Source: a virus (Monodnaviria > Loebvirae > Hofneiviricota > Faserviricetes > Tubulavirales > Inoviridae). Taken from it: a stretch of DNA of 29,483 nt. The position numbers and the translations under genes are program-made. Below the pieces are notes generated by a model. It saw nothing but the letters and a program-made list of their open reading frames with translations, was not told the origin of the DNA and did not search any database. The DNA lies in IMG/VR virus record IMGVR_UViG_2851976983_000002; one strand, written 5' to 3'. Every line of letters begins with the position of its first letter. Within the stretch, counting starts at the first letter, position 1. Of the stretch, positions 3,190 to 4,518 are shown one piece after another.

Positions 3190-4518
3190 ATGCGGCTGTT
3201 ATTTCTGCTTTTATTTCTTCCGTTCTTTTCATCTGCTGAGTCATTCACAAGAACATTTGCGCCTTTTAATTTAACGGAGTCTGATGAGGCCTGTATTTCC
3301 CGTCCGGCGCTGCAGGGGTCACTTTCCGGGGCGTTTCGCAGTGATAATACATGGTATGCTGTTGTGGATGGCTGTATTTATATGGCGACAGGTGTGATTG
3401 TTGGCAGTGAAACAGGTGATGTCGCCGCTACTAACTGGATCCCTGTGGCAGCTTATGAGCCTTCGGATGGTGATGGCGGTGACGGGGATAACAGTTCCGG
3501 CGGCAACGGGGACAACAGTTCCGGTGATGATAATGATAACGCTGTATCCGGTCAGGTTTCTGCTGTCTATTTGCTTGAACTTGCGGATACACTGAGGAGG
3601 CAGGAGTGTGATAATAATCCGCTGTTAATCTGTGGTTCATTTTCAGGATATTATCCCCCGCGGGAAACTATGCCTTTATCTGAGTTGCGCGCTCACGCAA
3701 AATATTACTCCTGCACTCCCAACGGTTCCGGCTGGCAGAACCTTTATAACAGCACCTGTTATTTAAGGGAGGGTTATAAAATTGAGGACGGGAAAATTGT
3801 TCCTGACAACGGTAATGAGGAAGATAACAACGGTAGTGAAGATAATAATTCCGGCAGCGATGGCGGTAATAATTCCGGTGGTGGAAATACCGGGAGTGAC
3901 GGCAATGATAATAACACCGGAAACGGGGATGACGGTCTTTCTGATGAGTGGGGAAGAAAAATATATTATCTGCTGAATGCCGGACTGCCTGCCATCGGAG
4001 ACAAAATTGACAGTTTTCATAGCAGCTACATTGAACTTCAGAATAAAACCCTTGTTACCATGGATTATATGACAGAAAGGCAGGTGAAATATTTACACAG
4101 CATTGATGAAAAATTTGGCGCACTGACAGAGCCGGATAAAAACTACTCTTCGTCTCAGGCGCAGTTTAACAGCACTATGCAGGGGATTATTGAGAACGGT
4201 ATAAGTTCAGTGGAGCAGGGCGTACAGGACCGGATTCAGGAACTTATTCCCCTGATTGAAGATTATGTGCCTGTGCTTAATTTTTCCGGCATTATTCCTC
4301 AGGGCTTCTTCGGCAATAACAGGGATGTCTGTGTGCCACTGGATTTAAGTTTTTCATTCCGGCCTTTCGGGGGTGAGGAAATGCCCTTTAATCTCTCCAC
4401 GGAAGGTGTCTGTCGTATTTATGACGGTTATCTGCGGGAGGTTATTCGCTTTTTTATTTATGTCATCACCGCAGTGTCATTAGTCATCCTGGTTGATAAA
4501 TCATTATCCGGTAGGTAA
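3190..4518 (+). CDS. Minor coat/adsorption protein (gpIII-like)
   Basis: 442 aa; signal peptide; two Gly/Ser/Asp/Asn-rich linkers; C-terminal hydrophobic anchor; position after coat gene. Confidence 0.8.
   Translation: MRLLFLLLFLPFFSSAESFTRTFAPFNLTESDEACISRPALQGSLSGAFRSDNTWYAVVDGCIYMATGVIVGSETGDVAATNWIPVAAYEPSDGDGGDGDNSSGGNGDNSSGDDNDNAVSGQVSAVYLLELADTLRRQECDNNPLLICGSFSGYYPPRETMPLSELRAHAKYYSCTPNGSGWQNLYNSTCYLREGYKIEDGKIVPDNGNEEDNNGSEDNNSGSDGGNNSGGGNTGSDGNDNNTGNGDDGLSDEWGRKIYYLLNAGLPAIGDKIDSFHSSYIELQNKTLVTMDYMTERQVKYLHSIDEKFGALTEPDKNYSSSQAQFNSTMQGIIENGISSVEQGVQDRIQELIPLIEDYVPVLNFSGIIPQGFFGNNRDVCVPLDLSFSFRPFGGEEMPFNLSTEGVCRIYDGYLREVIRFFIYVITAVSLVILVDKSLSGR

Follow-up and report, generated by a model that had tools for sequence, protein, structure and literature searches.

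The coat protein differences between two related filamentous prophages, A and B, which lie side by side in a tandem A-A-B-B array of putative dif prophages, most likely (with a probability of roughly 0.7) represent reshuffled blocks of pre-existing allelic variation, and the allele classes to which these blocks belong have perhaps been selected. This reading is drawn from states shared with other phages, from tracts that are base-identical elsewhere, from the synonymous diversity (piS) of the family and from a recombination signal (p<0.001). The sequences are mosaic, synonymous and non-synonymous differences cluster together, and dN/dS is below 1.

Organization of the prophage array

Self-comparison of the window (the whole stretch of 29,483 nucleotides analysed) revealed four tandem filamentous (inovirus) prophage copies in the order A-A-B-B, all on the plus strand. 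Copy A1 (1-8270) is 100% identical over 8270 bp to copy A2 (8271-16540). Copy B1 (16541-24562) is followed by copy B2 (24563-29483), which is cut by the end of the window; apart from the junction region the two B copies are the same, exactly so from 16440/24462 onward. The 18 mismatches and 18 gap positions that the self-comparison gave for B1 and B2 were rejected as variation between the B copies because all of them fall within 16142-16439, where the tail of A2 is compared with the tail of B1.

According to the Pfam and PHROG assignments, the replication module of A1 encodes a Rep_trans protein (994-2220) and is followed by the structural and assembly module. The replication module of B1 consists of an HTH repressor gene (16832-17377, minus strand), a G2P-type Rep gene (17246-18373) and an SSB gene (18386-18748). 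These replication modules are unrelated; the 5.3-kb virion/assembly module is common to A and B at 97% identity (97.0% for the structural module of B1, 19172-24466). All A and B genes are intact. The copies are arranged head to tail and are heterogeneous, with A and B adjacent, as is characteristic of dif-integrating filamentous prophages.

A and B would be related filamentous prophages of the E. coli group that the host XerCD recombinase would integrate at dif. A Pfam and PHROG scan of the ten largest ORFs in each of A and B revealed no recombinase. Within the window, neither a canonical E. coli dif site (up to 3 mismatches allowed) nor, in exact searches, the XerC and XerD arms were found. 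The window itself is without chromosomal flank; in other genomes hipBA is immediately followed by identical or related prophages, and in one related array (L007) a canonical dif occupies 24616-24643, at the right end just after the last copy.

A1 is 100% identical to prophages of the enterotoxigenic (ETEC) strains 503025 and E24377A. Among 5426 complete genomes the phage group is present in 21, which include those of ETEC strains such as E24377A, and comparable tandem arrays occur in 9 other genomes. INPHARED phage records gave no match to the whole A or B units (megablast) or to gpIII (tblastn), and neither unit was assignable to a named phage; the literature yielded nothing specific on E24377A-type filamentous prophages or on a phage-encoded TolA mimic. 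The pattern described here is an ordinary one within a little-described phage group.

Distribution of the A/B differences

The genes of the common module follow the order g8-g3-g6-g1-g4, as in the Ff phages. The adsorption protein gpIII of A (3190-4518, plus strand; 11460-12788 in A2) has 442 amino acids, that of B 441 (19774-21099 in B1, 27796-29121 in B2). It matches the Pfam family Phage_Coat_A (PF05357) over residues 3-72 with 40.5 bits (cut-off 20.8) and the g3p structures 2g3p, 3dgs, 1g3p, 1tol and 2x9a with E values of 2.5e-7 to 6.6e-6, the best being 2g3p (E=2.5e-7), in which fd residues 2-84 align to gpIII residues 30-109. The g3p of the Ff phages (fd/M13/f1) is built from a TolA-binding N1 domain, a Gly-rich linker, an F-pilus-binding N2 domain, a second linker and a C-terminal anchor domain. 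Similarly, gpIII combines two globular N-terminal domains, the first of them a homologous N1, with low-complexity linkers and a hydrophobic C-terminal anchor; its translation starts with a signal peptide (MRLLFLLLFLPFFSSA) and contains the hydrophobic stretch FFIYVITAVSLVILV at residues 421-435, and its gene lies between g8 and g6.

Between A and B, gpIII differs by 13 replacements (A24V, N27K, S31A, A34V, S44T, V59L, M65R, N82D, S174T, G181D, Q183R, N184T and D224E, in the direction from A to B) and by three one-codon indels (B has an additional V after G43 and lacks T81 and S102); every one of these differences falls inside residues 24-224. Eight of the replacements and two of the indels are in N1 (3238-3453, residues 17-88), which is homologous to fd N1 and, like it, putatively binds domain III of TolA. 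In fd g3p the strand around V44 adds onto strand beta3 of TolA (PMC4339652); the TolA-contacting strand aligns to gpIII residues 68-73 (GVIVGS), unchanged between A and B. The third indel is in linker 1 (3454-3540, residues 89-117; rich in Asp, Gly, Asn and Ser), where B is one Ser codon (3 nt) shorter within a 24-nt tandem repeat present in 2.1 copies (3475-3524). The second domain, 'N2' (3541-3804, residues 118-205), which would presumably bind the primary receptor (pilus or other), carries the patch S174T, G181D, Q183R and N184T (3709-3741), and D224E, the last replacement, is in linker 2 (3805-3939, residues 206-250). The C-terminal domain with the membrane anchor (3940-4518) has the same protein sequence in A and B and 3 synonymous differences; residues 225-442 as a whole are identical, with 4 synonymous differences. 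These domains of gpIII are all encoded on the plus strand. Neither the second domain nor the C domain matched any Pfam family or solved structure. An AlphaFold2 model of full-length gpIII (19-sequence alignment, mean pLDDT 40) was usable for N1 only, with pLDDT values of 72-78 at residues ~30-90 and low confidence for N2.

The major coat protein g8 was assigned by its phrog_17608 match and by gene order (2859-3134 in A, plus strand, encoding a 91-aa precursor; 19443-19718 in B). Its layout comprises a signal peptide, an acidic N-terminus, a hydrophobic core and a basic C-terminus. With signal peptide cleavage after VLA, the A-to-B changes E31D, G32D, N43S, Q44K and D45A would correspond to mature residues 1, 2 and 13-15; they define a variable tract of codons 31-45, or mature residues 1-15 (2949-2993, plus strand), reading EGVSYTPGQAVINQD in A and DDVSYTPGQAVISKA in B.

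The remaining genes of the module are also on the plus strand. gpVI (4521-4880; 21102-21461 in B) is without any difference over 360 nt. The secretin gpIV (6154-7374; 22735-23955 in B) has 2 replacements and 4 synonymous differences. The Zot-like assembly ATPase gpI (4888-6144; 21469-22725 in B) has 9 replacements, 8 of which fall, together with 11 synonymous differences, in codons 258-397 (5659-6078) of its C-terminal part, which does not belong to the virion.

An earlier note, made from the sequence alone, had already described much of this pattern: the four gpIII segment pairs and the g8 pair that it quoted are present as given, as are the identical C-terminal half of gpIII, the differing N-terminus of the mature major coat protein, the one-codon difference in the repetitive tract of the first linker and the identity of gpVI. 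To its gpIII pairs should be added QG-SLSGAF (A) versus QGVTLSGAF (B), S174T and D224E. Its statement that gpI and gpIV show only a few changes holds for gpIV but not for gpI.

Replacements are clustered along the module (index of dispersion 2.13, reached by 0 of 5000 permutations). With the exposed virion parts defined as gpIII residues 17-250 plus mature residues 1-20 of g8, their density there is 8.3-fold higher than elsewhere (p=5e-8), which bears out the claim that replacements concentrate in exposed parts, except that the C-terminal part of gpI, outside the virion, has a similar density (8/168 codons versus 18/252 in the exposed parts; the difference is not significant, Fisher p=0.41). 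Synonymous differences are clustered too (p=0.003) and are 2.7-fold denser in the exposed parts (p=0.014), and the two kinds of difference co-vary (Spearman 0.38, p=0.018). The ratio of replacements to synonymous differences is marginally higher in the exposed parts (18:11) than elsewhere (12:22; p=0.045).

When A was compared with B by the Nei-Gojobori method, dN and dS were 0.052 and 0.125 in gpIII N1 (dN/dS 0.41), 0.020 and 0.051 in N2 (0.39), 0.14 and 0.28 in the g8 N-terminus (0.51) and 0.022 and 0.091 in the C-terminal part of gpI. In the C-terminal domain of gpIII, the N-terminal part of gpI, gpIV and the rest of g8, dS was 0.006-0.030 and dN 0-0.002. The pattern that the earlier note named as refuting its reading, an even spread or mostly synonymous substitutions, is seen in half: synonymous differences gather in these tracts as well, and dN/dS never exceeds 1.

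Origin of the variable tracts

At 73 of the 87 columns that differ between A and B, each of the two states is also present in prophages from other E. coli strains; only one column has a state private to B, and 13 show a state unique to the A phage. B also contains whole tracts that other strains carry unchanged. In the N1 tract (3231-3500) A and B differ at 25 positions and B differs at none from the ESC818 and UTAK-18 alleles; in 3701-4260 the 11 A/B differences compare with 0-1 between B and JNE25-005, and in the gpI tract 5651-6100 the 19 A/B differences compare with 0 between B and the JNE25-005 prophages. The nearest relative changes from tract to tract. In one IMG/VR locus (L014) a B-type N1 is combined with an A-type backbone. 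Taken as new mutations of A or B, the diversification proposed in the earlier note does not agree with these shared columns and base-identical tracts. No gpIII relatives that could have served as outside donors of the divergent blocks were found in GTDB species-representative genomes, and no non-Escherichia donor was found.

Recombination was also evident in the family. In a PHI (pairwise homoplasy index)-style test the observed value was 0.216, whereas permutations averaged 0.394 (p<0.001), and 14713 of 37401 informative site pairs (39%) were incompatible with a single tree; together with the tracts identical to different relatives, these values demonstrate recombinational mosaicism. Relative to A, other E. 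coli prophages are 71.5 to 100% identical in gpIII and 97.8-100% in gpVI, gpI and gpIV. For alleles of the family, a protein search yielded 41 clusters at 90% identity. In a small sample of 18 gpIII alleles from 10 E. coli loci, piS was 0.21 in N1, 0.57 in N2 and 0.26 in residues 251-345, and 0.036-0.056 in gpVI, gpI, gpIV and the rest of gpIII. Sites with at least three amino acid states are concentrated in N1 (6) and N2 (7), which hold 13 of the 17, the A/B sites 34, 65, 82 and 184 among them. The g8 variable tract is a dimorphism (EG..NQD / DD..SKA) that recurs across the family and assorts independently of the gpIII allele and of the replication module.

These observations suggest that the four short tracts in which A and B differ (g8 codons 31-45, gpIII N1 codons 24-82, gpIII codons 174-224 and gpI codons 258-397) would each be an older allelic block circulating among these phages, moved by homologous recombination, most plausibly when different phages share one array or cell. 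gpIII N1, N2 and the first part of the C domain, and likewise the exposed g8 N-terminus, would then be old divergent allele classes on a near-uniform backbone.

Shuffling of such blocks could also be without adaptive meaning, with the gpIII N-terminal domains, the linkers, the g8 N-terminus and the periplasmic linker of gpI merely under weaker constraint. This is compatible with dN/dS below 1 everywhere, with the variation of the Pro/Ala-rich gpI region and of the low-complexity gpIII linkers, and with the position of the linker indel in a slippage-prone tandem repeat. We nevertheless consider it unlikely. A piS that reaches 0.21-0.57 in N1, N2 and the early C domain but is ~0.04 in the backbone on either side implies that old allele classes persist despite frequent recombination, which weak constraint alone would not predict; the concentration of sites with several states in N1 and N2 and the maintenance of the g8 dimorphism as two discrete haplotypes over many backgrounds also speak against it. 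We infer that the classes persist through favoured variation in host entry (primary receptor, TolA engagement or exclusion between phages would be meant) or in surface charge or antigenicity, rather than through mere weak constraint. Selection acting on entry or antigenicity is plausible, though unproven.

The earlier note implied recent positive selection, that is, point mutations that arose after the divergence of A and B in receptor-binding or exposed surfaces and altered the host range. The 8-fold higher replacement density in the exposed parts, the marginal excess of replacements there, the sites with several states listed above and the nature of the A-private gpIII changes would fit such a history. 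The states in question are N27, the S44/deleted-V change, V59, M65, the T81 insertion and D224, and the changes comprise 5 replacements, 2 indels and 0 synonymous differences, although with so small a count P is ~0.25 under neutrality; they could have arisen by new, possibly adaptive mutation in the A lineage instead of being imported as blocks. However, the variable tracts all have a dN/dS of 0.39-0.51 together with a 4- to 10-fold increase in synonymous divergence, most states are common to other phages with whole tracts base-identical elsewhere, and the non-virion part of gpI has a similar replacement density. For the B-side states recent positive selection is already largely refuted, and overall we regard it as quite improbable. 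Surface diversification holds in that the gpIII N-terminal domains and the exposed g8 N-terminus are variable both between A and B and in the family, the latter as the per-domain comparison across related phages shows for N1 and N2. A dN/dS above 1, as expected for positive selection on a receptor-binding protein, was found neither between A and B (0.39-0.51) nor in the family (piN/piS 0.26-0.36). Being averages, these values leave room for a few positively selected sites.

Sister phages in the same arrays encode a 121-aa protein similar to TolA domain III, with a signal peptide and ~30% identity to TolA residues 335-421. A secreted TolA mimic of this kind might engage in a decoy-versus-ligand arms race, in which the N1 and N2 classes would be kept by frequency-dependent selection arising from competition between co-resident phages, in part by escape from the mimic. 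The footprint would be the multi-state N1 sites 65, 73, 77, 79 and 82, which flank the TolA-binding strand, and only phages that differ in their entry alleles would come together in mixed arrays such as A-A-B-B. As a specific account of the allele classes this is very unlikely.

Mis-assembly of near-identical repeats as the source of the A/B differences or of the A-A-B-B order is exceedingly improbable: tandem 8-kb repeats are hard to assemble and the related record pJNE25-005_3 is full of frameshifts, but the A module recurs without a single base change in five independent complete genomes and in two IMG/VR records, independent genomes likewise contain the B tracts base for base, and the genes of both types are intact, with A1=A2 and B1=B2 exactly.

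The reshuffling of standing allelic blocks carries a caution, namely that a two-allele comparison resembling adaptive surface change can stem from standing variation that has been reshuffled and has a dN/dS below 1. The comparison also yields a first map of the inovirus family at the E. coli dif site, which has been little described; in this map gpVI, the N-terminal part of gpI, gpIV and the C-terminal end of gpIII are fixed and the g8 N-terminus, gpIII N1, N2 and the early C domain are exchangeable allele blocks. For those who study host range or exclusion, the map indicates which blocks to swap.

Relation to other filamentous phages

Unlike Ff g3p, gpIII has linkers rich in Asp, Asn, Gly and Ser rather than of the GGGS type, a counterpart of the first N1 disulfide pair only (C35-C62), a 13-residue N-terminal extension, and second and C domains without detectable sequence match. 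The phages themselves also differ, the A/B phage being a putative dif-site prophage whereas the Ff phages are episomal and F-specific.

Variability in CTXphi classically resides in the repressor/replication region, and the core, including pIII(CTX), is conserved; in the A/B phages, by contrast, the adsorption protein is the most variable core gene. CTXphi is not known to encode a secretin of its own, whereas the A/B phages do (gpIV).

The UPphi phages (UPphi901; relatives of IKe and I2-2) are dif-integrated tandem prophages of E. coli and other Enterobacterales (Shapiro & Putonti 2020, PMC7307601), and recombination between co-resident phages has been invoked for them as well (PMC7307601). Their g3p varies mostly in the Gly-rich linker (PMC7307601), whereas gpIII varies chiefly in its globular N1 and N2 domains and in the early C domain. 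In common with CTXphi/RS1 at dif in Vibrio cholerae and with Ypfphi/CUS-1, the A/B phages would depend on XerCD for integration at dif; they form tandem arrays of non-identical elements, in which adjacent prophages would yield hybrid phages, and combine a conserved core with alternative replication/regulation modules (in part as cited in PMC7307601). The 3.7-kb units of the related array L007, which lack structural genes, resemble RS1.

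Differences between the A and B structural modules

The structural and assembly genes of phages A and B lie in a common module (A 2588-7864 versus B 19172-24466, 97.0% identity; gene positions are those of unit A1), which also encodes g7- and g9-like small proteins. Between the two gpIII genes (3190-4518) there are 13 non-synonymous codon differences and three single-codon indels, all within residues 24-224; residues 225-442 are identical, with four synonymous differences, as the earlier note had stated for the C-terminal half. Every gpIII and coat string quoted there was found in the sequence, and three differences that it had overlooked were added (a V insertion with S44T, S174T and D224E). 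The linker difference that it reported is a 3-nt loss in a 24-nt tandem repeat of 2.1 copies (3475-3524), and gpVI (4521-4880), described as identical, has zero differences. The mature N-terminus of the major coat protein g8 (2859-3134) does differ, at precursor residues 31, 32 and 43-45, which would be mature residues 1, 2 and 13-15 if cleavage follows VLA (-3/-1 rule). The differing residues fall in the acidic N-terminal segment, which in Ff coat proteins is the outward-facing part. The statement that gpI (Zot-like, 4888-6144) shows only a few changes was wrong: this non-virion protein has nine replacements, eight of them in residues 258-397.

The two g8 haplotypes also differ in the net charge of the exposed segment (2949-2993 versus 19533-19577), which is about -3 in A (E1, D15, D18) and about -2 in B (D1, D2, K14, D18). 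Over thousands of subunits such a shift would alter the surface charge density of the virion, and mixed-coat virions are to be expected from a cell expressing both phages.

Of 1559 aligned codons in the module, 33 differ non-synonymously and 33 synonymously. Replacements fall in clusters (index of dispersion 2.13 versus 0.95 permuted, with none of 5000 permutations as high) and are 8.3-fold denser in gpIII 17-250 plus g8 mature 1-20 (18/252 codons) than elsewhere (12/1303; p=5e-8). Synonymous differences are clustered too (p=0.003), being 2.7-fold denser in the same segments (p=0.014), and over the length of the module the two counts rise and fall together (Spearman 0.38, p=0.018). Relative to synonymous differences, replacements are only marginally more frequent in the exposed parts than elsewhere (18:11 against 12:22, p=0.045), and the C-terminal part of gpI, with 8 replacements in 168 codons, is not different from the exposed class (p=0.41).

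By the Nei-Gojobori method, dN, dS and dN/dS between A and B were 0.052, 0.125 and 0.41 in gpIII N1 (17-88), 0.020, 0.051 and 0.39 in N2 (118-205), 0, 0.024 and 0 in the gpIII C domain (251-442), 0.14, 0.28 and 0.51 in the g8 mature N-terminus, 0, 0.03 and 0 in the rest of g8, 0.002, 0.006 and 0.31 in gpI 1-250, 0.022, 0.091 and 0.24 in gpI 251-418, and 0.002, 0.013 and 0.17 in the gpIV secretin (6154-7374). In none of these eight segments did dN/dS exceed 1. The proposed concentration in exposed parts held in that replacements cluster there, but synonymous changes cluster as well. Since the segments rich in replacements are those with high synonymous divergence, they bear the mark of tracts with another, older history and not that of an adaptive burst of replacements.

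Standing alleles and their recombination

Structural genes were extracted from related arrays in ten complete E. coli genomes; the plasmid record pJNE25-005_3, whose genes are ridden with frameshifts, most likely because of a low-quality assembly, was excluded from the analyses. Among the related prophages identity to A was 71.5-100% for gpIII, 89.5-100% for g8, 98.3-100% for gpVI and 97.8-100% for gpI; for gpIV it was 99.2-100% in intact copies and 98.6% over an IS-cut fragment. The 18 distinct nucleotide alleles of gpIII encode 15 distinct proteins, and their alignment is block-wise, with several N1 types, a deep split of N2 into two classes (DNNPLLICGSFSGYYPPRETMPLSELRAHAKYY and SSPTMICG.FSFA..PEEVMKL.DVR.FA.YY), then a short patch C-terminal to these (GSGWQNLYN / GSDWRTLYN / GSGWQSLYK) that assorts independently of N2 class, and a further pair of classes in the early C domain (around residues 300-345). 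The mature N-terminus of g8 has two recurring haplotypes, EG..INQD and DD..ISKA, freely combined with different gpIII alleles and replication modules.

At 73 of the 87 alignment columns that differ between A and B both states occur in other phages; the state is private to A at 13 and to B at one. The nearest relative of B switches between tracts: at 3231-3500 (N1) there are no differences from ESC818 and one UTAK-18 copy and 25 from A, at 3701-4260 there are 1 and 0 from the JNE25-005 copies and 6 + 5 from A, and at 5651-6100 (C-terminal part of gpI) there are none from JNE25-005 and 19 from A. A PHI-like test on 274 informative sites gave 0.216 versus a permutation mean of 0.394 (p<0.001), and 39% of the site pairs conflict with any single tree. 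IMG/VR records contain further B-type N1 alleles in which the GSDWRT patch takes other states; in one such record, L014, the B-type N1 sits on an A-type backbone. These results show that the A/B differences, in the adsorption protein, at the N-terminus of the coat and in the C-terminal region of gpI, are standing allelic blocks moved by homologous recombination among related dif-site inoviruses, often array-mates.

Mean pairwise synonymous diversity was 0.21 in N1, 0.57 in N2 and 0.26 in residues 251-345, versus 0.036-0.056 in gpVI, gpI, gpIV, linker 2 and the gpIII end; piN/piS was 0.26-0.36 in the variable segments versus 0.06-0.21 in the backbone. From the 5- to 15-fold excess of synonymous diversity over the recombining backbone, together with the concentration of multi-state sites in the same segments, we infer that selection, whether on entry, on exclusion or on antigenicity, may maintain the gpIII and g8 allele classes. 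There are three main alternatives. One is a neutral mosaic in weakly constrained parts. Another is recent positive selection for the A-private changes, a minority of the total, which in gpIII comprise five replacements, two indels and no synonymous change, too few for a test. The third, assembly error, is ruled out because independent genomes carry tracts that match base for base.

The phenomenon as such is already known. In the UPphi phages of E. coli g3p likewise varies more than any other protein, and tandem arrays of mixed composition have been reported at dif (PMC7307601); CTXphi/RS1 arrays and, for its homologous N1 and domain layout, Ff g3p are also among the closest described parallels. 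In the literature searched we found no description of the window's phage group or of its block structure.

The tandem array and its replication modules

By self-comparison the window consists of four head-to-tail units. A1 (1-8270) and A2 (8271-16540) are 100% identical, and B1 (about 16541-24562) and the incomplete B2 (24563 to the window end) are the same from 16440/24462 onward. B1/B2 mismatches were rejected as variation between B copies, all of them lying in 16142-16439, where the A2 tail is compared with the B1 tail. The public viral call L012 (IMGVR_UViG_2537561932_000002, 7374 bp), 100% identical to window 1-7374 at the same coordinates, covers one A unit, truncated at the gpIV end, and misses the tandem A-A-B-B structure.

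Of 5426 complete E. coli genomes, 21 have a copy that spans 80% or more of the module and 35 have any match; the A module is 100% identical in prophages of ETEC 503025, 503440, 503829, TW10573 and E24377A. The INPHARED phage collection gave no match to the window. In the matching E. coli genomes the array starts directly after hipBA, and in JNE112863 a canonical dif follows its last copy, which suggests that the two related inoviruses arrayed in tandem in the window are likewise of the dif-site type. No canonical dif was found in the window at up to 3 mismatches, so the phage must attach at a dif-like sequence that has diverged. It may lie within two direct repeats of ~110 bp, 85% identical (7758-7864 and 8063-8174; also 16028-16134 and 16333-16444), in the non-coding stretch between gpIV and the next unit.

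The left parts of A (1-2587) and B (16541-19171) are unrelated. A carries a Rep_trans initiator (994-2220), and B an HTH repressor (16832-17377, minus strand) divergent in orientation to a G2P-type (Phage_CRI) Rep (17246-18373) and SSB (18386-18748). Across the E. coli arrays the structural module is joined to one of four or more types of replication module. Besides Rep_trans and the G2P type with HTH, these include a 660-aa 'replication endonuclease' accompanied by a DUF2726 gene or by a TolA-like gene. Because the A and B replication modules are unrelated and two more kinds occur elsewhere, module exchange is at least as active as gpIII block exchange. G+C is 38-45% in the replication modules and g8/g3 (1-3000, 17001-19000) and 51-56% across 5001-8000 (gpI, gpIV and the non-coding stretch that follows them), a composition that suggests another origin for the assembly genes than for the rest of the phage.

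The predicted TolA contact and accessory elements

Residues 30-109 of gpIII align to residues 2-84 of fd g3p (E=2.5e-7), the domain layout is like that of Ff g3p, and the AlphaFold model is confident only in this N1-aligned region (pLDDT 72-78). N1 of fd binds TolA domain III through a beta-strand added onto TolA strand beta3, V44P marking the strand (PMC4339652). By alignment fd 42-47 corresponds to gpIII residues 68-73 (GVIVGS), the same in A and B. The N1 differences lie N-terminal to the first cysteine (24, 27, 31, 34), in a loop (44), at 59 and 65 (fd N39), and at 81-82 (fd G55/T56). Sites 34, 65, 73, 77, 79 and 82 have 3-4 amino acid states in the family, and several alleles have one residue inserted immediately N-terminal to V69, a pattern that would fit recurrent change near the co-receptor face.

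A 121-aa protein that starts with a signal peptide (MKKKMKIALMLIGVTLSANA) is encoded by sister phages from related dif arrays of E. coli, on the minus strand of L003 (4957-5322, 16138-16503), L005 (25754-26119), L006 (401-766) and L008 (26642-27007); the window has none. From residue 33 to 121 the protein shows homology to TolA domain III (PDB 1s62, 3qdp, 1tol; E about 6e-6; ~30% identity), the match spanning the helix and last strand contacted by fd g3p N1. It might act in the periplasm as a decoy that captures incoming g3p, a form of superinfection exclusion, or it might interfere with Tol-dependent colicins; no phage gene of this kind was found described in the literature searched.

The JNE112863 array (L007, about 1900-16600) contains, adjoining a full prophage, a mini-element repeated four times in tandem with a period of 3674 bp. 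It encodes a G2P-type Rep, an SSB and two small ORFs, has no virion genes, and looks to be a satellite of these inoviruses comparable to RS1 or TLC. In several related prophages ISEc31 (IS3 family) lies in or beside the gpIV gene, at more than one position (L004 16157-17370; L008 13700-14913, 23313-24526 and 34356-35569; L011 8366-9581); such recurrent inactivation would stop virion export with the prophage retained. L011 (NZ_AP045060.1, pJNE25-005_3), a circular 9613-bp 'plasmid' record, is a related inovirus genome with an IS, probably the replicative form alongside seven chromosomal copies.
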